Source: an uncultured Candidatus Bathyarchaeia archaeon
Lineage (GTDB): Archaea; Thermoproteota; Bathyarchaeia; 40CM-2-53-6; DTGE01
Assembly (NCBI GenBank): GCA_964489085.1
Contig: CAZAXO010000001.1
Location: 1,483 to 65,482, forward strand
Reading direction: 5' to 3'
Length of the DNA stretch: 64,000 nt
Of the stretch, positions 3,437-50,216 are shown piece by piece. The notes below the pieces were generated by a model that searched no databases, had not been told where the DNA came from, and worked only from the letters and a program-made list of their open reading frames with translations. The translations under genes and the position numbers were made by a program. How positions within the stretch are numbered: position 1 is the first letter of the stretch; the number at the start of each line of letters is the position of its first letter.

Positions 3437-4465
3437 TTACGCAGCAATATCCGAGTATTTAGTAAAAAGTCCTAAGTTATCGTCGTCTTGTGGGACGACA
3501 ATTCTCCCACTGTCAACATCCGAAATTGATATATTAGTACCAAACTCCATTTCAAATGGAAGGGTGTAATCGTTATATTTGAACTGAATGACCTGAGTAA
3601 ATACAAAGTAGATCTTATCACCAGAAATAATTACTTCAACTGGATAATCTGTGTAGAAATCAGTAATACTACAGTTAACTTGGTTAACGTTACCGTCCGT
3701 AGTGCTTACGGTATCGTTAAAATCGATCATTAATGCAAAAGCATTAGTAATTCGTTCCAATGTGTCATCGTATTTCTTTTGAGTGTCTACTGCTGGATCG
3801 TATGTTGGCGCTTGACAACGCCAAAATCGTTCGTCGTATAATTCTCGTAACTCCGTAGCATCCATATCATTTACGTCAGATTGCTCAATGTCCCAACCAC
3901 CACTTCCGGCATGAGCATTAGTCGTAGTGCTTTGTGGAACACTCATAATAAACGTAAAATTACCATTAGTCTGATAACTACCCATAGTAACTTCGTCGTT
4001 TGTGCTGGTTAACATATTAAAATTTAGGTCAGACGATTGATGGTAAACGTAAATAGTGTATTGCCCGTTTCCACTAAACAAGTGAAAGTTATTGGCAAAT
4101 ACCGTATCTCCGTCTGGGTCAATTTCGACCCAGAAGTAGGAATGTGCCGAAAGATCCTCAGAAACATCCTCCGCGTCGTCGGACGCCACCTCTTCTTCGA
4201 AATTCGTAGACAAATATGTTACATCTTCGAATTCCTCAATAGAGTCAGACTCTTCTGGTACCCATATAGAAATGGGTACAAAATCCGATACGTCTTCTCC
4301 GTCAACATAGGAAATAACCGTAAACGTAGAAGTTGTCGGAGTAGTAGTCGTTGTAGGTGCAGCAGCCCATAAACCAGCCATATTACCAACAAGGAAAAAC
4401 ACCAACATCCCAGAAACAGCCACAATGATAACAAGGAGTATTGCTTGCGATTTTTTTAATCTCAT
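3437..4465 (-). CDS. secreted protein with Thr-rich linker
   Basis: 342 aa. N-terminal TM/signal, then a TTTTTPTTST tract and acidic segments. Confidence 0.5.
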   Translation of the reverse strand: MRLKKSQAILLVIIVAVSGMLVFFLVGNMAGLWAAAPTTTTTPTTSTFTVISYVDGEDVSDFVPISIWVPEESDSIEEFEDVTYLSTNFEEEVASDDAEDVSEDLSAHSYFWVEIDPDGDTVFANNFHLFSGNGQYTIYVYHQSSDLNFNMLTSTNDEVTMGSYQTNGNFTFIMSVPQSTTTNAHAGSGGWDIEQSDVNDMDATELRELYDERFWRCQAPTYDPAVDTQKKYDDTLERITNAFALMIDFNDTVSTTDGNVNQVNCSITDFYTDYPVEVIISGDKIYFVFTQVIQFKYNDYTLPFEMEFGTNISISDVDSGRIVVPQDDDNLGLFTKYSDIAA

Positions 4466-9665: not shown

Positions 9666-10043
9666 TTAAACCTCTTTTAATATTTGTCTTAAATTCATAA
9701 TAACATATTTACATGCGTAAAGACATCCGTAATAATATATATCTTTCCACTTGTTCTTACTCTTTCTTACTTTTTTTGTATAACTTTTAAATCTATTAAA
9801 TAGATCATCGATAAAAATATCGAGTGGTTTTTTATCGGTCTCATTGGTAAATCTGCGTAATGTATATATTATACCATCCTTCATTTCTTTTGGTACTTCT
9901 ACAAACTTATCGAAAATGAGTTGATATTTGCTACTATCGTAAAACATAATTTCGTTAGTTATCTTGGTATTAATAGTTTCTTTTAGTTTCTTTTTTATTT
10001 CTTTTAAGGCTTCTATGAGTTTCATGTTGTCACCTTTGTACAT
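9666..10043 (-). CDS. hypothetical protein
   Basis: 125-aa ORF. Confidence 0.35.
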   Translation of the reverse strand: MYKGDNMKLIEALKEIKKKLKETINTKITNEIMFYDSSKYQLIFDKFVEVPKEMKDGIIYTLRRFTNETDKKPLDIFIDDLFNRFKSYTKKVRKSKNKWKDIYYYGCLYACKYVIMNLRQILKEV

Positions 10044-10942
10044 TCTCCTATAGCATATGATGTATATTGACTTAATTCCTGTCGTTGTTCTCGAGTTAAC
10101 ATACTCATATATCCTTCATCCCATAAAAATATTTGTACGTTTCTATACCTAGACTTATATCTTAGAATAATTTCTTCTCTGAGTCTTGTCTCAGCGAATT
10201 CATCACCGTTTCTAGCCAGTTCTTTTAACAAAGGAAAGCTTAATTTTGAATCCAAGACTCTTGTGTCGTAACCGTTTTCTACCCATGCTTGTACGTTGGA
10301 ACAGTGTCCCATAAATTCTTCGTCTGGAGTCAACATGGTTGTGTCGGACTCATTCCTGTTCGAGTATAAATCTACGATTTCATCGATGCTTTCGAAGTCG
10401 TCGTTCGAATGGTTGCAGGGGATGCTAATCAATAGATATGAACATTGCATAAATTGATTATTATTTATATAAATTCGTGTACGATTATCATGTTTGACTA
10501 ATTTTAAAAGGGAAGAACGAGGATTTGGATAAAATACTTTGTGAACTAGCCCTTTAGCTCCTATAAGACTAGCTCCAAATAGATCAGTCTTGTCGAAATG
10601 TGTATTATTTAGATTAGACCCTTCAAGATTAGCATCTCTTAGGTTGGTTCTGGTGAGATTAGCCCATTCAAGATTAGCTCCTTGTAAGTTGGCTCCCTCA
10701 AGATTAGCTTCTTGTAAGTTGGACCTCCCTAGGTCTGCTCCTTCAAGACAAGCCCCTCTGAGATCAGATATATTTAAACTAGCCCACCTCAAATTGGCAT
10801 TTTTAAAGTTAATATCCTTTAGATCAGCATTTGTAAGGATAATTTTCGAATAATCTACTCCCTCAAAGTTTGCCCCTCGTAGGTTAGCACCTTTAGTTGG
10901 TATTTTAGTAATACTACCAGTATCAGTATCATAAAACTCCAT
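10022..10942 (-). CDS. pentapeptide-repeat protein
   Basis: About 25 consecutive A(D/N)LxG pentapeptide repeats (ANLRGANFEGVDYS...ANLEGANLQGANLEWANLTRTNLRDANLEGSNL), followed by a unique C-terminal domain of about 150 aa. Confidence 0.7.
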   Translation of the reverse strand: MEFYDTDTGSITKIPTKGANLRGANFEGVDYSKIILTNADLKDINFKNANLRWASLNISDLRGACLEGADLGRSNLQEANLEGANLQGANLEWANLTRTNLRDANLEGSNLNNTHFDKTDLFGASLIGAKGLVHKVFYPNPRSSLLKLVKHDNRTRIYINNNQFMQCSYLLISIPCNHSNDDFESIDEIVDLYSNRNESDTTMLTPDEEFMGHCSNVQAWVENGYDTRVLDSKLSFPLLKELARNGDEFAETRLREEIILRYKSRYRNVQIFLWDEGYMSMLTREQRQELSQYTSYAIGECTKVTT

Positions 10943-20168: not shown

Positions 20169-21002
20169 TTATACATTTTCCTTTAATTTATGCTTATGTA
20201 GTCTAACAAATACCCTTATATCTGGATTAACCTTTCTCAAATATACTCTTCTGGCTTTCAATAATTCAAGATTAGATATTAAATTAACCCAAAATCTTTT
20301 AGTAAAAATAATAAATATCTTTCTCCATATCCCCTTATATTGTTTCATCAATTCATAATAATACCAATACGGATTTTTATCCCATTTAGGCTCCCAATAC
20401 CACTTAACCCATAAACCATTGTTTATCTCAGCTACCCACCGCCTTAAACAACTTATACACCATCCACACGATCTATGCTTATTATCGTAGCAAGACACCG
20501 TAAAATTTTCTAAATCCTCTACATCTCCACCTTTCTTAATATACTTTTTCAATAATTTAGTCTTTGTATACCTTCTAACTGGAAATTCAATTTTTACCTT
20601 CCTTTTAGTTTGTAATCCAAGAACATCGTCCCAACAATAAGAAATTATATTCTGAGCCATTTTCCTAAATTTATTAGTCTTATCCTTACTAGTTTCACCC
20701 CTGAGAGCACACAAATAAACTATATCCCCGTAAAAACTAGCTATTTCAATAAAGAATAAATTTCGTAAAGGTATATGAGCATTATCCAACTCAAATCCAA
20801 GTATACTACTTGCATCTACAATGATGAGCCTACCTCCGAATCCCCCAAGTTCATCAAACGCATTAATAATTTTTAACTCTTTTTCTTCGTATCTGGAACC
20901 TGTCTTAATGTATAGTAATATATCTGGTTCAAATAGGAAATTACATATAAAACTATCCATTCCACCTGAATACAGTAAGACGGTCTTTTTCTCACTTGAC
21001 AT
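20169..21002 (-). CDS. queC: 7-cyano-7-deazaguanine synthase QueC
   Basis: PP-loop VLLYSGGMDS, YIKTGSRYEEKE, and a C-terminal CGWCISC zinc site. Confidence 0.7.
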   Translation of the reverse strand: MSSEKKTVLLYSGGMDSFICNFLFEPDILLYIKTGSRYEEKELKIINAFDELGGFGGRLIIVDASSILGFELDNAHIPLRNLFFIEIASFYGDIVYLCALRGETSKDKTNKFRKMAQNIISYCWDDVLGLQTKRKVKIEFPVRRYTKTKLLKKYIKKGGDVEDLENFTVSCYDNKHRSCGWCISCLRRWVAEINNGLWVKWYWEPKWDKNPYWYYYELMKQYKGIWRKIFIIFTKRFWVNLISNLELLKARRVYLRKVNPDIRVFVRLHKHKLKENV

Positions 21003-31648: not shown

Positions 31649-32599
31649 TTAAAATTCAAATAGTGTCGTCTGTTTTTCGTTAACAGATAATTTCCTAAGT
31701 TTACCGATTCCATTCTCCACCCTAACCCTAGAAAATCCATTTTTCTCATATAAAAACTCAAATAATTTTTCAAAGTCTGGTTTCTTCCTTGTTAGTTTAT
31801 AATTAGTATTTACATTAGGATTTAAATACATTCCCATAAGCCTATGATATAAATCGAAAAATTCTCCGTTTTTAAGCATCTTACCAGTTTTACATTCTAT
31901 CATAGCCTTATCAATAAAAGGAGCCTTAAATATATCATCATACTCCGTCACTGCCTTTACCGCCGTGTTAACACCAACCCCCTTTATACCAGAAAAATAA
32001 TCATTACCAGATAATATGGCAATAGATATAAGATCTTCACGTTTCAATCTTTTGTCATTCAAAACCTTAGCCAAAGAAATGAATTCTATTTTGTCTGCTT
32101 TCATAGCCAAATTTCTAACCAAACGTTTACCACCAAATAAGAGTATATCGAAGTCCTGACTACAAGCACAAAAGGCTTGATCTTTCATTGTTAGATAAGC
32201 ACATTGGGCATCACCTTCACTCGGAGATTGAATAGATTGTATACCCATTAAATCTAACAACTCTTTACCAGATTCTATTACCTTATCGGTAATATGTATC
32301 AAATCCTTATTTTTCTGTCTATACCACCTAAGTTTAGTTATCTTTTCATTACCGTCAAAACAGTAAATAGGTCTAATATCGTGTTCCAATAATTTTAAAT
32401 TTCTATAAAACAACCCAGATAAATGTGACGTAATATCACCACCGTAATTCATAAGGGGTTTTCCGTCAGAACCCCTTATGGCATGTAGGAATTGATAAAT
32501 AACGTTAAAAGCATCTACACTAACAGTCCTATTTATCAAACTACCCATTGTCAAGTCTCGTTTAGTAGACTCAGTCAAAACACCTATACCACTACCCAT
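31649..32599 (-). CDS. fen: flap endonuclease FEN-1 (XPG family)
   Basis: XPG-N GDITSHLSGLFYRNLKLLEHDIRPIYCFDG and XPG-I SPSEGDAQCAYL...SQDFDILLFGG, with an HhH-like region. Confidence 0.8.
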   Translation of the reverse strand: MGSGIGVLTESTKRDLTMGSLINRTVSVDAFNVIYQFLHAIRGSDGKPLMNYGGDITSHLSGLFYRNLKLLEHDIRPIYCFDGNEKITKLRWYRQKNKDLIHITDKVIESGKELLDLMGIQSIQSPSEGDAQCAYLTMKDQAFCACSQDFDILLFGGKRLVRNLAMKADKIEFISLAKVLNDKRLKREDLISIAILSGNDYFSGIKGVGVNTAVKAVTEYDDIFKAPFIDKAMIECKTGKMLKNGEFFDLYHRLMGMYLNPNVNTNYKLTRKKPDFEKLFEFLYEKNGFSRVRVENGIGKLRKLSVNEKQTTLFEF

Positions 32600-38914: not shown

Positions 38915-41617
38915 CTATACTAATGCTTGTAACTCTGTATCTTGAAATATATCTAAATATTGTATACCTAATTCTTTTAACGATGTTTCTAATGGAGATA
39001 AAGTCTTTTTTATTAATCTGTCGTAATCTATGGCTTCTATTACATCATCCGGTAGGTAATCTTCGTCATCTAAGGCTACTTTATCTGTTTTGGCATATTT
39101 AGGTGGTATTTTATTTTCGTCTGTATAAATAAAATGTATAATTGAGTTCTTTCCAAGATTACTTAGACCATCCCATAAATAAGCCCACTGATTTGTCCAT
39201 CTTGCTGCGTCAATATGTTCTACTTTTGATAAGACTTTTCTACCTGTTTTTTTATCTATTCTAAAATACTCGTCAAATCTTTTTGTTGCGGTAACTCTAA
39301 TACAGAGATCCTTTATTGGATATTTACCGGATATTATTTTATTAATTTCCTTTCTTATATATGATTTTATTAGTTTTATTATTTCTCTGTCAGATTTATC
39401 TTCATGTATTATAGATTGTACTTTCTTTATTATTTTATTTCCGACTATAGGTATATTACTCTTTATGTGACCGGTAATTTCTATTTCTGGTTCTTTTAAT
39501 ATAATAGATTTATTTAATATAAACTTTACTATAACTCCTTCACTATATTTCTTTTTTGCTCCAGTGTCATCACTACCTTTTATTCTAACCATAAAATAGG
39601 TCGAAGATATGGTTTCTGGTCTAATAAACAACCTATTTATTTTTAGGTTGAATTTATTCGTTACATATGTTTTATAGAAATGGTTTAGTCTCTTTTCTAT
39701 TTTTCTGCTTTCTTTTATCATATCTTCTGCTGACTTACTTTTTAATTGTATTTTTAATGAATCGGTATCTCCATATATTACTTTTATACCCATATGTATT
39801 AGTAATTTCTTTCCATTTATCATCATAAATCTTGCTGTTACTGTGATAGTCTCAGCTATTACTTCGTTAAATAATCTCCAGTTTTCATTTCCGAATATGC
39901 CGTATATAGTATTTGTTAAATATTTTATTACTGTTTGAGTATCATTAGTTAATTGAATTTCAAACTCCAGTTCTATTATTATTGTTTTGTTACCTTTTTC
40001 TTTTTCTTTTTTCACTTTTTCTTCTAGTTTAAATAACTCTTCTTTTATATTATCTCTATATTCTATTAGCTCTAGTAAACAGCTTGCTATTAGTGATGTT
40101 TTGTCCCGTCTGAAGTATGTATTATTTGGTGTGCTTATATAATCATACGGTAAATTTTTTAATTCTTTTTCGGTCAAATCTTTTCCTATGTATGTATCAA
40201 ATCCTATATTGAATGAAATCATTATCATCGGATATAGTGATTTGAAATCAAATGAACATACTTTTCTTGAACGACCGAAAACTGCTGTGTCTACATATCC
40301 TCCTATATATCCTATTTTCTCTCGTTCTCTTGCTGATGGTAATACTATATTTCTATTCTTAGCCTTAACCAATAGTAATTGATCTATTACTTGCAAATTA
40401 GATAATATATTTTCATAGTTGACACCAGTCATACCTCGTATTCCACTAAAGTATTGTTCTTGTCTCAATTTCTCGTAAATTTCATAATCTATAAGGGTAT
40501 CTATAGCATTATAATAAACTAATAATTTTAATTTATTCTTATATGCTGTATTGAATGAACATCCTAATTTTATTTTTCCATATTTTATTACTGCTAGTCC
40601 GGCATTACCTAGACTTCCACTGACTGTTTTTGTTTGTCTACTCAGATATGCATCTCTTGTATCAAATAGTATTTGACCTTTTATTACATATTCGTTAGTA
40701 TAGTTGTTCAAATATACTGCGTTTAGAGGTGAAAGAGAGAAGTAATCTAGTCTTTTAGTTCTTGTTTTTTCATTGGTTATTTGTCTATTTAATACTTTCA
40801 TTCTGTTTATCATGTATGGAATATCGAATTTTTTTATGTTCCATCCCCATATTCCATCTCCGTTCGTATATTTATGGTATTTCAGGAACCCTCTGAACAT
40901 ATCTACTTCTTTATTATATATATGTATTATCCACTTGTATTTTTTACCGTGTGGATTTACTAATGATACGTGTTTTGTTATTTCATCGTTTTTGGATTTT
41001 ACTAATCCTTTTTTAAATACGAAGGTATTTGATGTTTTTGTAAACGAATCTATTACATTTATTACCGTTACTGGTTTTAGTGCTTTATCAACATCTGGTA
41101 TTTTATTTCCTTCTTCTGTTAGGGTTTCAATATCTAAATGTAGTCGTCTTTTATTGATGAAGAAGTTACATGGTTTTATTAACGAGTAATGTATCTTTCT
41201 TTTTCCAATTGGTACAGATATTCCATTTAGTACGTTAGCATCTATTTGAACTCGTATTTTATATGGTATATCATCTTCGTAACATTCTTCTGTTGGAAAG
41301 TAATCTCTTATACCGTGTGTCTTATTTGCTATACCGCTTACATCTGTTGAATTCCGTACGTATATTTTTTTTAATGGTAAACCATCATAGGATCTATATT
41401 TTCGTTTTGTCTTCTTGTTTTGTTTTTCTATTTTTACTATTCTATCATCTGTAGGTGGTGTACCTTCGTTACTAGTATAAAAATATGGTATGTGACCATG
41501 TGTAGTTATCATATGTTTCTTTTTATTTTTGTCTCTACCAAACCAGAATACTAACTCCCCTTTACCTTTTATTGATTTCTTTTCTACTAAATGAATAGAC
41601 AAATCCATACGTTCCAT
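38915..41617 (-). CDS. polB: family-B DNA polymerase
   Basis: Exo I LHLDIET, motif A DFKSLYPMIM, motif B KYLTNTIYGIFG and motif C YGDTDS. Length 900 aa. Confidence 0.9.
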   Translation of the reverse strand: MERMDLSIHLVEKKSIKGKGELVFWFGRDKNKKKHMITTHGHIPYFYTSNEGTPPTDDRIVKIEKQNKKTKRKYRSYDGLPLKKIYVRNSTDVSGIANKTHGIRDYFPTEECYEDDIPYKIRVQIDANVLNGISVPIGKRKIHYSLIKPCNFFINKRRLHLDIETLTEEGNKIPDVDKALKPVTVINVIDSFTKTSNTFVFKKGLVKSKNDEITKHVSLVNPHGKKYKWIIHIYNKEVDMFRGFLKYHKYTNGDGIWGWNIKKFDIPYMINRMKVLNRQITNEKTRTKRLDYFSLSPLNAVYLNNYTNEYVIKGQILFDTRDAYLSRQTKTVSGSLGNAGLAVIKYGKIKLGCSFNTAYKNKLKLLVYYNAIDTLIDYEIYEKLRQEQYFSGIRGMTGVNYENILSNLQVIDQLLLVKAKNRNIVLPSAREREKIGYIGGYVDTAVFGRSRKVCSFDFKSLYPMIMISFNIGFDTYIGKDLTEKELKNLPYDYISTPNNTYFRRDKTSLIASCLLELIEYRDNIKEELFKLEEKVKKEKEKGNKTIIIELEFEIQLTNDTQTVIKYLTNTIYGIFGNENWRLFNEVIAETITVTARFMMINGKKLLIHMGIKVIYGDTDSLKIQLKSKSAEDMIKESRKIEKRLNHFYKTYVTNKFNLKINRLFIRPETISSTYFMVRIKGSDDTGAKKKYSEGVIVKFILNKSIILKEPEIEITGHIKSNIPIVGNKIIKKVQSIIHEDKSDREIIKLIKSYIRKEINKIISGKYPIKDLCIRVTATKRFDEYFRIDKKTGRKVLSKVEHIDAARWTNQWAYLWDGLSNLGKNSIIHFIYTDENKIPPKYAKTDKVALDDEDYLPDDVIEAIDYDRLIKKTLSPLETSLKELGIQYLDIFQDTELQALV

Positions 41618-41665
41618 ATGGGTGGTAAGGGATTCGAACCCTTATACATGCCTGTACATTCTACC
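41618..41665 (-). ncRNA. tRNA-like 3-prime minihelix (T-arm plus acceptor, no D/anticodon arms)
   Basis: The minus-strand sequence reads GGGTAGA-ATGTACAGGCATGTAT-AAGGGTTCGAATCCCTT-ACCACCC-A. It has a canonical GGTTCGAATCC T-loop/stem and a 7-nt acceptor strand, and it ends 1 nt before the polB ATG. Confidence 0.35.
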
Positions 41666-41697
41666 CTTAATATAAAAAAAATAAAAATATTATTAGA

Positions 41698-42744
41698 TTA
41701 ACTATGTAGTTGAGGTCCGACTATATAGTTTAATTCTAAACCATAATCTAAATCACTTGTTTTCGATAATAGTAATGGTGTCTTATCTCCAAAGTATATT
41801 GTAACGTGACCTTTGGTAGAACTTACTGCTGCGTTAAACTGACCAGCGTATGTTACTTCGAAATTTTTATTCAGGTTTCCTTGTTTTATATACATATCTC
41901 TCGATACTTTTCCTCTATCCTCAGTTTTAGTGCTTTTTGATGTTATATTAAGTCTATTATTTTCTACTTTGAATGGATACATTCTGTTTGCGTGTAATTC
42001 TCCATCTCTTACTACTTCCTTCAGTTGGTTACAGCTTAATTCGACGTATGTAGTTAATTTTATTCCATTATATAATTGTACTATTGTTTTGTCTTTGTTG
42101 AATCTTCCAATAATTTTGTATTTCTTAAAGTAGTCTAGGTTATCCTTATCTGTTTGTTGTTTTCCTATATCGTAGTCTTTTCTTAATTTGGTTATTATAT
42201 CGTTCCTTATGTTTTTTATTTTTGTAGTTTCTACGAAGGCTTCGACGGTTATTGGAAAATTTAGATCTGTCCTAGATTTTCGTATTACTATTAATCCATT
42301 CTCATATATTACGTCAATTAAATCAGTGGAATTAAATCTATTTAGGTAAGATAATAGTTTCTCTATTGAAATTGGCATTTCTCCGGTATTAATTATTGAT
42401 AATTTGTGATCGTATTTATTGTTAATCTTTAATCTCATACTTGCTATTAGACCTTTGTTTAAGTCCATAGAGATAGACCATATCATATTTGTTTCTACTC
42501 GTATTATACAATCATCAATAAAGTTACTTTTTTCTCCAGATAACGTCGTACCATTTGCTTTTAAATGATTTAATATATCAACTAGTTTATTACAAATTAT
42601 TTTAAATCCTACTAATTTAGTTATTTTCTCAGTACTGTCGTCTTCACCTATATCCTCTATTTCCTCTTCTTCAGACTCTACTATATCCTCATATTCATCC
42701 ATAGTAACTTCTATTTCGTCATCATCATCAAAATCTTCACTCAT
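41698..42744 (-). CDS. candidate sliding-clamp (PCNA-like) protein with acidic N-terminal extension
   Basis: It sits between polB and the ATPase gene. The ~300-aa core has a PCNA-like N-terminal pattern (LVDILNHLKAN...FIDDCIIRVETNMIWSISMD). The call is tentative. Confidence 0.3.
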   Translation of the reverse strand: MSEDFDDDDEIEVTMDEYEDIVESEEEEIEDIGEDDSTEKITKLVGFKIICNKLVDILNHLKANGTTLSGEKSNFIDDCIIRVETNMIWSISMDLNKGLIASMRLKINNKYDHKLSIINTGEMPISIEKLLSYLNRFNSTDLIDVIYENGLIVIRKSRTDLNFPITVEAFVETTKIKNIRNDIITKLRKDYDIGKQQTDKDNLDYFKKYKIIGRFNKDKTIVQLYNGIKLTTYVELSCNQLKEVVRDGELHANRMYPFKVENNRLNITSKSTKTEDRGKVSRDMYIKQGNLNKNFEVTYAGQFNAAVSSTKGHVTIYFGDKTPLLLSKTSDLDYGLELNYIVGPQLHS

Positions 42745-45353: not shown

Positions 45354-45571
45354 ATTTGGATATTCTTTCCTAACTTCTTCCTCAAGCTCTTCTGCTCGTT
45401 CGAATAGGTCTTTTTCGTTTACTGTTTTTTTTTTAGCCCAAACTTTTATTATCTCATATTTTTCGGTTTTTTCTTTTACTATGTTTAACCACCTTTTGTA
45501 TTTTCTTATTATCGGTTTTTAATTAAATTTTTTTATAAATTTTAAAAATTTTTTTTATATTTAAATTTTGA

Positions 45572-45608
45572 ATTATAACTTAATAATCAACTATTATTAA
45601 GTTATAAT
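45572..45608. promoter_or_regulatory. 37-bp palindrome in divergent intergenic region
   Basis: ATTATAACTTAATAAT-caact-ATTATTAAGTTATAAT. The 16-bp arms are perfect inverted repeats, and the palindrome lies at the minus/plus strand-switch point. Confidence 0.5.
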
Positions 45609-45686
45609 AAAAGTTTTAAATTTTATAATTTTTTTATATAATTTATTATTAAATTAACTTTCCAAATTGACATAGGTGGGATACAT

Positions 45687-46499
45687 TTGATTTATGTAGT
45701 TAATTACGACATGGATGAAGAAGATATAAGCAAAATCTCGGATTTTAAGTATAATAATATATTTATAAACTGTCTAGACCATAGTACAAAGGGTATAGAA
45801 AATGTACTCATTAATACATTTGCTGAGCCAAACAGAAATTTCTTTTCAGGTAAAATATGTAGGTATATAATTAGAAACGTATATTTTGCTAATAATAAGT
45901 CTATAGATATAGTTTTCCGAAATGTTGGTAGGATTATATATCTTATTAATATTAGTTATGAACAGGAGAAGTACATATATTCTAAACACAAAAATAAATA
46001 TAGGTATTATAAGTGTTCATTTAAAAGGAGGGATGATTCGTTTACACTTATGGTTAAACGGGTTATGTTTTGGAATGATATGAACAAATTGAGTTTATTG
46101 GAAGGACAAAGTTATGATATAGGTTATTTATTGAAATTAATTAGTTATAACCTACCGGAGTCTGTGTTATCTGAAACGGACTTTCTTAATAATCTTGAGC
46201 TTATAATGGATTTAGGTAAGTATGTTAATATGATAAATAAAGAGAATATATTTGTATCTTTACTATTGAATTTTGTTACACCTTCTTATATAACTAAATT
46301 TAGATATCCTCCTAAACATAGAAAAGGAAAAAAGAAGAAGGAGGAATCTGAGTTAAAAACTAAATATGGTGGCAATATAGAGGATATGGCTCGTGATAAA
46401 ATGATTGAATATTTTAAATATAGAGACTCTGATTTTGGAAATATTAATACATCGAAAAAAGCCAAAAAAAATAACGATAATACAATGAGTTTGATATAA
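45687..46499 (+). CDS. hypothetical protein
   Basis: 270-aa ORF, the first gene of the plus-strand block. Confidence 0.4.
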   Translation: MIYVVNYDMDEEDISKISDFKYNNIFINCLDHSTKGIENVLINTFAEPNRNFFSGKICRYIIRNVYFANNKSIDIVFRNVGRIIYLINISYEQEKYIYSKHKNKYRYYKCSFKRRDDSFTLMVKRVMFWNDMNKLSLLEGQSYDIGYLLKLISYNLPESVLSETDFLNNLELIMDLGKYVNMINKENIFVSLLLNFVTPSYITKFRYPPKHRKGKKKKEESELKTKYGGNIEDMARDKMIEYFKYRDSDFGNINTSKKAKKNNDNTMSLI

Positions 46500-47099
46500 A
46501 TGAATTTTGAGGATATAACTGATATTAAATTTAAGAAGATAGATAAGGATACTATAGAGTTTACTAAAAAGACCTCATTATGGTGTACCTTACCATATGA
46601 TAACCATAGTAAAGGGTGTCCTAACTACGGTAAAAAAAATACATGTCCACCAGATGCTCCGTATTTGGAACATGAAGTAAAGTCATACGAACATATATAT
46701 TTACTTTATTTACGCTTTGATTTTGAGATGTATAGAGTAATAAGGGGCAATGAATGGATTAATAAGGGATTTCCTTATACAGAAAAGCAATTGCGTTGTC
46801 TTTTATATTATCAACCCTCAATAAAGAGGATAATTAAAAATCATATAATTAATAAATTATTTACTCTGGGAAGTATTTATGTTCTTGGATGTGGTTCTGG
46901 GTTGAGGCTTCCTTTTCAAAAGATTGTGTATTCTATGGAAGCTGTTGGTATAAATGTATTTAAAACGTTAAAAAATAATAATATTTATCATGAAATCAAA
47001 CCTGTTAATACTACATTGTTTGTTAATTTAATATGTTCGAGTGATATTGTATTTGAGAGGAAAGAGAAGAAAGAGATAAAAATAATGGAGTTGATATGA
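46500..47099 (+). CDS. hypothetical protein (CPNYGKKNTCPP motif)
   Basis: 199-aa ORF immediately adjacent to its neighbours. Confidence 0.35.
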   Translation: MNFEDITDIKFKKIDKDTIEFTKKTSLWCTLPYDNHSKGCPNYGKKNTCPPDAPYLEHEVKSYEHIYLLYLRFDFEMYRVIRGNEWINKGFPYTEKQLRCLLYYQPSIKRIIKNHIINKLFTLGSIYVLGCGSGLRLPFQKIVYSMEAVGINVFKTLKNNNIYHEIKPVNTTLFVNLICSSDIVFERKEKKEIKIMELI

Positions 47100-48059
47100 T
47101 TGGATGAAGTTAACGTTTTGTTAATGGAAAAATATAGGAGTAGTGATTTTTCTGATGGTGCGTTATTGGGTCAAGATAGGATATTGAGGTCGTGTAGAAA
47201 TTTTGTTAAGAAGGGTGAAATACCACATCTTATATTATCTGGACCTGCCGGTACCGGAAAAACAACTACTGCTTTGGCTTTGGCTTTACGTATTAGTGGA
47301 CCTGCTAATACTAAAATACTTAATGCGAGTGATGAAAATAGTATTAAGGTTATACGAGGACCAGTTAAAGAATTTATTATGGCTGATTCTGATTTGTCGG
47401 ATATATTAAAGACTCTGATATTGGATGAAAGTGATAATATGTCATCTAAGGCTCAACAGGGACTTCGTAGAATGATAGAAGAACATAGTGATTCTTTTAG
47501 GCTTATTATGACGTGTAATTATATAAACCAGATTATAGATCCCATTGTATCTAGGTGTGTAAATTTGGTATATAGACCTATTCCTAAGATTTTAGTTGTT
47601 AACAGATTAAAAAAGGTTGCTAAAGCTGAATCTATTAAAATTACTAAGAAACAACTTAATATAGTTGCTACTGTGTTTAGGGGTGATATGCGTAAGTGTT
47701 ATAATATTTTAGATTCTATTCGTCTTGGTGCTGATTTTGGTGCATTAATAAATGAAATAAGTCCCGTTACTTATTTTAAGTTAATATTATCTAACAATAT
47801 AGTCGGTATTAAGGATTATATTGATAAAAATATATTTAGTAAGTATGATATGAAATATTTGATTGATTTGTGTATAGATTTGATTGTTAGATTAATTAAA
47901 TCTGATAAAGTTAACGATAAAAGTAAATTTAGTTTGTCTAATGCTAAACATTTGGTTGGTCTTTTGACCGAGGCAGATTATAGGTTGTCTATTGGTTCTG
48001 AATATTCTGCTGTAGCCTTCTGGATAGCTGTAAAGTATAATAATTTGGTGTTATTATAA
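47100..48059 (+). CDS. rfc: replication factor C small-subunit-like clamp loader (AAA+)
   Basis: Walker A LSGPAGTGKTTTALALA, Walker B ILDESDNM, and the RFC-specific SRC motif (IDPIVSRC). Confidence 0.75.
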   Translation: MDEVNVLLMEKYRSSDFSDGALLGQDRILRSCRNFVKKGEIPHLILSGPAGTGKTTTALALALRISGPANTKILNASDENSIKVIRGPVKEFIMADSDLSDILKTLILDESDNMSSKAQQGLRRMIEEHSDSFRLIMTCNYINQIIDPIVSRCVNLVYRPIPKILVVNRLKKVAKAESIKITKKQLNIVATVFRGDMRKCYNILDSIRLGADFGALINEISPVTYFKLILSNNIVGIKDYIDKNIFSKYDMKYLIDLCIDLIVRLIKSDKVNDKSKFSLSNAKHLVGLLTEADYRLSIGSEYSAVAFWIAVKYNNLVLL

Positions 48060-48341
48060 GTGATTACATTTCTAGTTAAGGAAGCTCGTAGTCATTTGGA
48101 GGAATACGGTATTGTATACACTTTACGAGAGTTTTCAAATCGTCGTGTTGGTAAATGTAAATATAATTATTTTCCAAATGATAGGAGTAGAGGGTCTGTA
48201 TTTATTGTTTTTATTGGGAATTTTTTTGATAAGGAATGTGAATTAGTACCATACGTTAAAGATTCCGGTTTTAATTCTTTGAATGAGTGGTTAGAGAAGG
48301 CAGGTAAAGCCAGAATGTTATACTCGGTAAGTTTATTATAG
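48060..48341 (+). CDS. hypothetical protein
   Basis: 93-aa ORF. Confidence 0.3.
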   Translation: MITFLVKEARSHLEEYGIVYTLREFSNRRVGKCKYNYFPNDRSRGSVFIVFIGNFFDKECELVPYVKDSGFNSLNEWLEKAGKARMLYSVSLL

Positions 48342-50216
48342 GTGATCGTTATAGATCTTTGGCAGAAGTTATTACCCATTAGAGAGAAAGCCTACAGTTC
48401 AGATAAAAAAATCATATTGGATAATTACATACAGGGATCTGGTAAATCTCTATCTCAAACCGGTATAATGATAAAGAACAATAAAAATAACTTAGCCTTT
48501 TTTAATGACCACGAACTAATTCACGAAATGTGGAGTTCAATTTACAGTACCAGAGGTATTGGAGGTTGGATTAAGAACTACCCTTTTATCAACCTTATGT
48601 TTGGTAAGACTTACGTACTTAAGGAATACGAACGTAAAACCTACGGCAAGAAATTTAGTTGTTTCTGCAATCAGTACGGTAACGATTTAATCTTTAATTT
48701 GATAAGGATGGGATTTATACCTAGTAATTATTGTAATGATATATGTGTGTATGGTAACGAGTGTTCACATAAAGCTCAGATACGAGAGAACTTCAACATG
48801 GCTAAACTGGATTTTGATAGTCTATGGTTGTTGGTTAAATCCTATATATTTACAGATATAATGGATGGTATATTTGATAAGTTTAAAGATTTGAATATAT
48901 TGATGGATGAAAACTTCTTTAACGTTTTGTTTGACCAGATAGATTTGAGGGCATTTACTATATCATTTTATAAGAAGGCTATTTCAGATGTGTTAAATAT
49001 AAATTCTGAACTTGAGGAAATATGGGTAGATTTTGTACCACTACTTGATAGGATGATAAATAGTTTGGTTGGTGCTAAAAGCATAAAGACAGAAAAGAAG
49101 ATCAAGTTAATAATTAGAGATATATACGAATTTTTAGGTTCTTATTCTGTTTCAGATTTATCGGGTTGGAACGAAATTATGAAGCACACCTTTCTCCAAA
49201 ACAATGGTACTATAACTCCTAAGATAGGAAATATTATGAATAGTTTTATAGATATACTAAATGATATTTCATTATGTGAAACACCTGAGTCTGTCAATAA
49301 TAGAATTTTAGTCGATGACGAAGAACATATATTTACATACATAATAAATAAAAAAAAATTAACTGAAGATCTAATTGAAAAATCCTCCAAATTTATAATT
49401 GCATCATCTATAATGGATGGTAAAATATTCGAAGCATTATTTCCAAATTATTCTGACGATTATACCATACTGCATGGTGGAATACAACCTAAATTTAAAA
49501 AAGTGTATAGATATACGAAGGGTGTGTATCCAAAATATGTATTATATAATTATAAAACGAATCAATATACTAAATCGTTCTGCAATCTACTTAAAATTAC
49601 TGGTGAAATATTACAGAGACATAAAAATGATAAATTGATGTTAGTGAGCTTTAAGGAGTTTATAAGAGTTATCCATAAAGGGTTAAAATCCGTTATACGT
49701 AAATATGGTATAGATTTAGTATATGCATATTGGTACAATATAGAAGGTAAAAACATTTATAAAGATAGAACGGTACAAATACAATTTGGATGTCCAGGAA
49801 GACCAAGTAGATATTCTACTGCGATTTCTACTATTTTAGATTTAGATAAAGACCTGATCGATTATATATCGGTACAAGGTGCACAATTTCAAACATCCGA
49901 GAGACTTAGAAGTATCTTATATCCAAATGTTAAAACAGTTTACCAATTATCGAAGATAATAAATGACAAATATCCTGAATATATAGATTTTAATAATATT
50001 GCTGAGATAAAGCATAAGGGTCTTATTTCCTTTATGAGGAAATACGGGGTTTGTAGTGCTGATGAAATAAGGGTAAAATATTATGAAAGTAGGATTTCTA
50101 AAAAGCAGGTTACCAATGTACTCGATAACTTATTTAGAGAAGAGTTATTAGGTAAGGTTAAGATTAAAAGGGAAGTAGGACCAGGAAGACCAACTTGGTA
50201 TTGGAAGGCTAATTAA
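48342..50216 (+). CDS. large P-loop NTPase (Walker A QGSGKS) of unknown role; packaging ATPase or replication ATPase are candidates
   Basis: 624 aa with YIQGSGKSLSQTG near the N-terminus and Cys clusters (FSCFCNQYG, CNDICVYGNEC). Confidence 0.35.
   Translation: MIVIDLWQKLLPIREKAYSSDKKIILDNYIQGSGKSLSQTGIMIKNNKNNLAFFNDHELIHEMWSSIYSTRGIGGWIKNYPFINLMFGKTYVLKEYERKTYGKKFSCFCNQYGNDLIFNLIRMGFIPSNYCNDICVYGNECSHKAQIRENFNMAKLDFDSLWLLVKSYIFTDIMDGIFDKFKDLNILMDENFFNVLFDQIDLRAFTISFYKKAISDVLNINSELEEIWVDFVPLLDRMINSLVGAKSIKTEKKIKLIIRDIYEFLGSYSVSDLSGWNEIMKHTFLQNNGTITPKIGNIMNSFIDILNDISLCETPESVNNRILVDDEEHIFTYIINKKKLTEDLIEKSSKFIIASSIMDGKIFEALFPNYSDDYTILHGGIQPKFKKVYRYTKGVYPKYVLYNYKTNQYTKSFCNLLKITGEILQRHKNDKLMLVSFKEFIRVIHKGLKSVIRKYGIDLVYAYWYNIEGKNIYKDRTVQIQFGCPGRPSRYSTAISTILDLDKDLIDYISVQGAQFQTSERLRSILYPNVKTVYQLSKIINDKYPEYIDFNNIAEIKHKGLISFMRKYGVCSADEIRVKYYESRISKKQVTNVLDNLFREELLGKVKIKREVGPGRPTWYWKAN

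Follow-up and report, generated by a model that had tools for sequence, protein, structure and literature searches.

A short tRNA-derived element upstream of polB in a probable archaeal virus, with features of a decayed viral tRNA gene

The stretch of DNA analysed here, which we call the window, is 64 kb long and virus-like, with 30% G+C and nearly all genes on one strand. On its minus strand a gene for a putative sliding clamp is followed by the gene for a family B DNA polymerase (polB), and between the two lies the tRNA-derived element that is the subject of this report (Table 1). The clamp assignment comes from one homologue that is named PCNA in UniRef; a PDB profile search with the protein left the PCNA identity unconfirmed (E=0.19), the match to Sulfolobus PCNA being not significant. 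From the clamp stop codon onwards the minus strand reads ...TAA tctaataatatttttattttttttatattaa GGGTAGA (remainder of the element) A T ATG GAA CGT ATG GAT..., and the element, from G41666 to A41619, reads GGGTAGA AT GTACA GGCA TGTAT AAGGG TTCGAAT CCCTT ACCACCC A. It is followed by T41618 and by an ATG at 41617-41615.

The gene content of the window is informative with respect to the likely host. The best PDB matches of its FEN-1 are archaeal FEN-1 proteins at 3e-57, with TIGR03674 (fen_arch) at 2e-83, the RFC small subunit matches archaeal RFC at 2e-41 versus 6e-19 for T4 gp44, and Hef/ERCC4, Hel308 and a family-4 UDG are encoded as well (archaeal-type replication and repair genes lie at 31649-32599, 47100-48059 and in further ORFs). 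Judged by these genes the window probably belongs to an uncultured archaeal virus of a marine-sediment lineage, even though exact matches to part of the element occur only in bacterial metagenome-assembled genomes (MAGs; see below). A search of INPHARED with the window gave no match among deposited phages, and scans of IMG/VR with PolB, the clamp profile and the 23-mer described below gave no close relatives. The window also encodes a complete set for preQ0 (7-deazaguanine) synthesis, namely FolE, QueD, QueE and QueC (QueC at 20169-21002), which suggests modified DNA bases or tRNA-related chemistry, and a pentapeptide-repeat protein of 306 amino acids (10022-10942; Pfam 4e-37), which may be a DNA mimic. 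The sole substantial plus-strand block (45354-50216), made up of DUF2284, an RFC-like ATPase and an ORF of 624 aa, diverges from the clamp/polB operon, and the sign of the GC skew switches there.

The element was found in a preliminary description of the sequence as 48 nt located 5' of polB on the minus strand; the sequence given there is correct, while the coordinates (41618-41665) were one base off. The canonical T arm and the 3' acceptor strand that had been described are both present, the T arm AAGGG-TTCGAAT-CCCTT having a loop of the GTTCRANYC type and the acceptor strand being followed by a discriminator base. The hairpin in the middle, previously counted as 6 bp, has 5 bp, and it represents a truncated anticodon arm or else an arm that has taken its place; with a loop of four instead of seven nucleotides it supports the earlier statement that an anticodon arm is missing. 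The companion statement that there is no D arm is debatable. The sequence ATTA-AGGGTA-GAAT-G (41671-41657) resembles a D arm, it is readable as one of 3 bp when A14, R15, G18, G19 and A21 are looked for (ATTA-AGGGTA-GAAT), and GGTAGAATG is the exact motif of D-loop, D-stem and G26 that is very common in viral tRNAs. Alternatively, the same GGG opens a 5' acceptor strand in which five of seven positions pair with the 3' strand, four of them contiguous, with mismatches at 5:68 and 7:66. The two readings of the GGG exclude each other.

Table 1 Features of the clamp-polB region (positions in the window).
Feature	Position	Strand	Basis or remark
Putative sliding clamp, 348 aa, upstream of the element	41698..42744	-	One homologue named PCNA in UniRef
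AT-rich spacer, oligo-T run and TATATTAA, 3' of the clamp stop codon	41667..41697	-	Terminator-/promoter-like context common to relatives
Whole tRNA-derived element, 47 nt plus discriminator A41619	41619..41666	-	Sequence, descriptor match, Rfam tRNA 14.5 bits (model positions 10-63)
GGGTAGA, 5' acceptor strand (5/7 pairs with ACCACCC) or remnant from G18 G19 to the 3' D stem	41660..41666	-	GGTAGAATG motif; position
Short hairpin GTACA-GGCA-TGTAT, 5 bp including one G-U, 4-nt loop	41644..41657	-	Sequence and folding
T arm AAGGG-TTCGAAT-CCCTT, 5 bp, canonical 7-nt T loop	41627..41643	-	Formed in all fold predictions
3' acceptor strand ACCACCC plus discriminator A, no encoded CCA	41619..41626	-	With the T arm gives the 23-mer GGGTTCGAATCCCTTACCACCCA, tRNA-Val(TAC) 3' end
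7-bp hairpin CCAUAUG-GAA-CGUAUGG	41605..41621	-	Both candidate polB start codons inside; the acceptor strand contributes its last two C
Family B DNA polymerase ORF (polB)	38915..41617	-	Pfam and PHROG matches; likely true start 41608

The tRNA origin of the element follows from three lines of evidence, one being the D-region motif GGTAGAATG described above. Its 3'-terminal 23-mer recurs unchanged at the 3' terminus of authentic tRNA-Val(TAC) genes in two MAGs of GTDB, one from Saccharibacteria and one from Gammaproteobacteria, which are the only carriers of the exact sequence among 185,579 GTDB species; in the archaeal genomes of that set it does not occur. Furthermore, a descriptor demanding a T arm that pairs perfectly and has a TTCRANY loop, the pair G53:C61, and at least five of seven acceptor pairs including the first three had one match in the window, compared to 0.02 per shuffled window. 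Judged from its nucleotide sequence the element is thus certainly tRNA-derived, far beyond what chance would produce.

It is not a canonical tRNA gene: the acceptor stem is incomplete, an anticodon arm with a 7-nt loop is missing, and the tRNA finders score it below their thresholds. ARAGORN, which had been proposed as a check, returned no tRNA and no tmRNA genes over the 64-kb window and hence no canonical call for the element, and Rfam at gathering thresholds returned no matches in the window; a permissive Rfam scan of the whole window gave only three weak matches to unrelated families. In a local search with the Rfam tRNA model the element scored as listed in Table 1 (E=4.6, against a gathering score of 29), and the alignment took ATTA-AGGGTA-GAAT as the D arm and continued with the T arm. 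In intron mode ARAGORN proposed a tRNA-Lys with a 44-nt intron at 41619-41758, which we rejected as an artefact with poor stems reaching 60 nt into the clamp ORF. The element is the sole tRNA-like sequence in at least 64 kb of genome. The preliminary description, by which the sequence is derived from a tRNA and yet incomplete as a tRNA, therefore agrees with the 23-mer identity and the descriptor match as well as with the lack of an ARAGORN or Rfam call.

As a structure the element is predicted to be weak. The isolated 48-54-mer folds into a closed three-way shape as its minimum free energy (MFE) structure, with z values of -0.6 and -1.1 that are no better than those of shuffled sequences; for the 48-mer this fold combines an acceptor-like closure with the T arm. 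When 81 nt of context are folded, GGGUAGA pairs with UCUAUUC inside the polB codons instead of with the acceptor strand, and the 7-bp hairpin around both ATGs appears, at a z value of -1.25 that does not differ significantly from shuffled sequences. Where a tRNA 3' fragment is present, a qualifying 5' partner is expected within 30 nt with p ~0.05. Folding, suggested earlier as a check, thus bore out the T arm in every prediction, while the overall fold did not rise above shuffled controls.

The element had been described as directly abutting the polB start codon. This is probably not so, since the N-termini of homologous PolB proteins (M-x-L-S-I-Y...) align with the second ATG (41608) and not with the first (41617). 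The second ATG is probably the true start, which would place the element 10 nt away from it, counted from the discriminator, and the abutment with the first ATG is probably incidental. No Shine-Dalgarno (SD) sequence precedes polB, whereas strong GGAGGTGA-like ones stand before roughly half of the window's ORFs. A sigma-70 promoter scan was uninformative (4 sites versus 3.6 expected).

For comparison we analysed the clamp-polB junction in relatives, defined as contigs with homologues of PolB (48-56% identity, from marine-sediment metagenomes) or of the clamp. This junction is hypervariable and extends from 65 nt in L012 up to approximately 3.8 kb, taken up by small ORFs, in L008. A tRNA-shaped gene follows the clamp stop codon in L005, L006 and L117, and in all three the context is an oligo-T run, then ATAA/TATTAA, then GGG; relative to the T-run and TATTAA, GGGTAGA of the window occupies the position of G1-G3 of these genes. 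The slot is empty in L003, L004, L007, L008/L009/L011/L014, L012, L018, L021, L116, L118 and L119, so that a tRNA-like element before polB is absent in 10 of the 13 relatives. The preliminary description had named a lack of conservation upstream of polB as refuting its proposal of a cis-acting element, and by that standard the distribution among these relatives weighs against it. The tRNA-like genes of the relatives end 14-23 nt before the next start codon or are separated from polB by another ORF.

The contents of the slot differ in identity and in form. L006 carries a canonical tRNA-Pro(TGG) with 59.8 bits in Rfam, L005 a cloverleaf (44.6 bits) whose anticodon loop bears an insertion of approximately 48-57 nt, and L117 two tRNA-like genes, of which L117a (69 nt, D-armless, followed by CCA) precedes L117b, a homologue of the L005 gene. 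The identities are Pro in L006, Val-like in the window and undefined in the others. Outside the T arm the similarity of the window element to L117a, L117b, L005 and a further element in L010 is within the range of shuffled sequences, and a gapped alignment to the relatives was rejected as evidence of homology, being carried by the flanks and the T arm. A Val-like 3' end against Pro or undefined identities, together with the lack of similarity outside the T arm, fits turnover in the slot and not vertical conservation.

The homologous cloverleaves of L005 (3200-3322) and L117 (2617-2733) have intact acceptor, D and T arms and a 41-57-nt insertion that replaces the anticodon loop. Between the two, 7 of the 20 stem pairs are altered on both sides and 95% are still paired, and these compensatory changes place that RNA under structural selection; within the insert the motifs GGTG...ACAAA...GAGTAT are conserved. 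Manual enumeration gave no excision that would leave a 7-nt loop with U33, and a bulge-helix-bulge intron was rejected because no canonical motif exists at a position yielding such a loop. The RNAs may represent a novel kind of tRNA-shaped RNA or an unusual intron. A pattern scan for further cloverleaves of this insertion type produced chance matches in coding sequences and two ordinary halovirus-like tRNAs.

Two smaller elements were seen among the relatives. L117a (2535-2603) combines a perfect 7-bp acceptor stem with a long arm closed by a 5-nt loop and with a T arm, and its CCA is encoded; it was missed by ARAGORN and folds with a z value of -2.4. The other, in L010 (2278-2340), measures 63 nt and consists of an acceptor stem with all 7 bp paired, the hairpin GGUC-GUAA-GACC and a T arm; its fold has z = -2.3. 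It is located 650 nt ahead of polB in sequence not common to the sister contigs (L010 is a sister of L008), within the first 2.4 kb of a JGI scaffold that contains an N gap and differs in composition, which may point to a breakpoint left by recombination or integration, or to a chimeric scaffold. In L006 the GTG called as polB start (approximately 4215-4246) cuts off the conserved N-terminus; the frame runs on upstream (…ATT AAA CTC TCA…) with no ATG, GTG or TTG at the expected place, which suggests a non-canonical start codon.

Taking these results together, we put the chances slightly above even that the element is a decayed, internally deleted pseudo-tRNA, left behind by a viral tRNA gene in a fast-turnover tRNA slot between clamp and polB. 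The option of a remnant tRNA, one of several raised in the preliminary description, is the best supported of them: T arm and 3' end are identical to those of a tRNA, the cloverleaf is lost, and the position in the slot is equivalent to that of the relatives' genes. The survivors would be the T arm, the 3' acceptor strand with its discriminator (tRNA-Val-like), a stub of the anticodon arm, and the GGG(T)AGAAT stretch as a leftover of the 5' end, of the D region or of both. We infer that a deletion between two GGG runs may have created GGG-TAGAATG, which would reconcile the reading as G1-G3 with the reading as D-loop, and that the anticodon loop and the variable region must have been lost through further deletions. 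Such a remnant would have no decoding ability and presumably no selected function; any residual activity would be incidental, consisting of a T-arm hairpin in the transcript before polB and possibly some nicking by tRNA-processing enzymes. Viral tRNA pseudogenes and truncated remnants offer a close parallel, as they too retain the T arm and 3' end after losing the cloverleaf, are missed by tRNA finders and occupy the site of complete tRNA genes in relatives. The element differs from them in being extremely short (48 nt), in being the only tRNA-like sequence in at least 64 kb, and in that it can still close into a three-way shape.

Some findings speak against a relic. The 25-nt 3' part is flawless despite a genome of 30% G+C and a wrecked remainder, which suggests that decay set in very recently or that the T arm and the acceptor end are under selection. 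In addition, three tRNA-shaped RNAs of the relatives (L117a, L005 and L117b) are non-decoding, and the compensatory pairs in L005 and L117b indicate that selection in this virus family acts on tRNA shapes that do not decode. Finally, the missing SD sequence of polB, in a window where strong ones are common, leaves room for an unusual route of initiation.

The flawless T arm and 3' end would be explained if the element were a working t-element, an alternative that we consider possible but unlikely. T-elements are tRNA-like processing signals known from plant mitochondrial mRNAs (PMC1920247) and from the 5S rRNA precursor of Haloferax volcanii (PMC3296008, PMC4326828). [quoted passage not shown] In favour of this model, the T arm fits GGTTCRANYCC, the motif used to find t-elements, with GGTTCGAATCC at 41640-41630 (PMC1920247), the MFE fold of the isolated 48-mer joins the acceptor-like closure to the T arm, the element ends 1 nt before an in-frame ATG of a gene that lacks an SD sequence, and structured non-decoding tRNA shapes occupy the same slot in relatives. 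[quoted passage not shown]

On the other hand, the acceptor has two mismatches, the fold is no better than shuffles, and in context the 5' strand prefers another partner. The tRNA-like genes of the relatives do not adjoin a start codon in this manner, and most relatives express polB without any such element. The upstream oligo-T may moreover act as an archaeal terminator, in which case the 5' strand is perhaps not co-transcribed with the clamp gene. The weak and non-unique fold, the imperfect acceptor stack and the absence from 10 of the 13 relatives thus weigh against RNase P/Z processing or translational control in cis, the functions proposed at the outset. The likeness to t-elements lies in the non-canonical tRNA-like fold, the GGTTCRANYCC T arm and the location directly upstream of the 5' end of another gene, and archaeal RNase P and tRNase Z are known to act on elements of this kind; described t-elements are, however, non-canonical cloverleaves of approximately 70 nt, whereas the window element has 48 nt, one short extra hairpin and an imperfect acceptor.

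A wider version of this idea, which we hold to be a little less probable again, is that the slot holds a selected family of non-decoding tRNA-shaped RNAs, with the window element as a working, transcript-punctuating member that releases a near-leaderless polB mRNA. Such a family may comprise “mini” forms of 48-69 nt, in which an acceptor and a T arm are combined with a single hairpin, and cloverleaves whose anticodon loop is replaced by an insert of 41-57 nt, and it may be kept because it gives the RNase P, tRNase Z or CCA-adding enzyme of the host a point of entry. Analogies come from mascRNA and the tRNA-like RNAs of gammaherpesvirus-68, acceptor/T-arm mimics that serve as entry sites for RNase P/Z and define the ends of neighbouring RNAs. 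They are tRNA-shaped and non-decoding like the element, but they are eukaryotic, have full cloverleaf-like folds and enjoy experimental support, and they provide an analogy only.

An old integration site had also been suggested, i.e. that the element is an attP or att scar in which the 3' end of a host tRNA was carried for site-specific integration. What has stayed intact corresponds exactly to the 3' portion of a tRNA, truncated and unfoldable tRNA-like fragments are known attP sites of archaeal viruses (PMC8707807), and the mini element of L010 lies near a breakpoint between virus-like and unrelated sequence. The closest known case is the tRNA-like gene HrrHF2_450 of halovirus HF2, which is an attP and has 57-nt truncated versions in related viruses (PMC8707807); it shares with the element an unconventional fold and a tRNA-identical 3' part. 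HF2, however, has an adjacent integrase and exact matches to host tRNAs. In the window no integrase or recombinase was found among the families listed for its 92 ORFs (the best 25 each from Pfam, PHROGs and NCBIfam; approximately 6 kb of the source contig lie outside the window), nor did direct searches of the ORFs near the element find an integrase, in accordance with the earlier remark that none is nearby. Besides, the site is located within the clamp-polB replication module, complete tRNA-shaped genes lie at the same place in relatives, and the exact 23-mer, present in two bacterial MAGs, is found in no archaeon of GTDB while the genes of the virus are of archaeal type. We therefore regard an attachment-site relic as highly improbable.

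Very slightly less probable still is a protein-binding or translational operator in the polB leader, by which the T-arm hairpin and/or the 7-bp ATG hairpin would regulate polB translation. One possibility, drawn by analogy, would be autogenous repression as in phages T4 and RB69, where the gp43 operator, placed upstream of the start codon, consists of a 5-bp stem and an 8-nt loop. A hairpin of 5 bp with a 7-nt loop does lie 9-18 nt upstream of the polB start codons, the 7-bp hairpin would sequester both ATGs of this SD-less gene, and the PolB profile fits RB69 gp43 structures about as well as archaeal PolB. Yet no such hairpin is kept upstream of polB in the relatives, the context fold is not significant, and a tRNA origin explains the T-arm hairpin more simply.

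The last suggestion, one half of a split tRNA of the Nanoarchaeota/Caldivirga type that would be joined in trans to a 5' half encoded elsewhere, is hardly credible: although the host is probably archaeal and the 3' part intact, a search of the 64-kb window for the 5' half (GGGTGGT or wobble variants) gave nothing tRNA-like, the seven other GGGTGGT sites all lying inside ORFs with no D arm after them, no leader/trailer complementarity or bulge-helix-bulge was seen, and the segment before the T arm is too short for positions 38-48.

If the element is a relic, as we prefer to think, it marks a fast-turnover tRNA slot beside the replication genes of an uncultured, probably archaeal virus lineage, a slot whose contents are missed by tRNA finders. 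Were it instead a working t-element, it would provide the first viral case in archaea of tRNA-like punctuation that gives rise to a leaderless mRNA for a replication gene, and a selected family of slot RNAs would parallel, in an archaeal virus, the tRNA punctuation of mitochondria and the t-elements. The more promising lead is in the relatives, where the structured, non-decoding tRNA-shaped genes of L005 and L117 are neither ordinary tRNAs nor ordinary intron-containing tRNAs.
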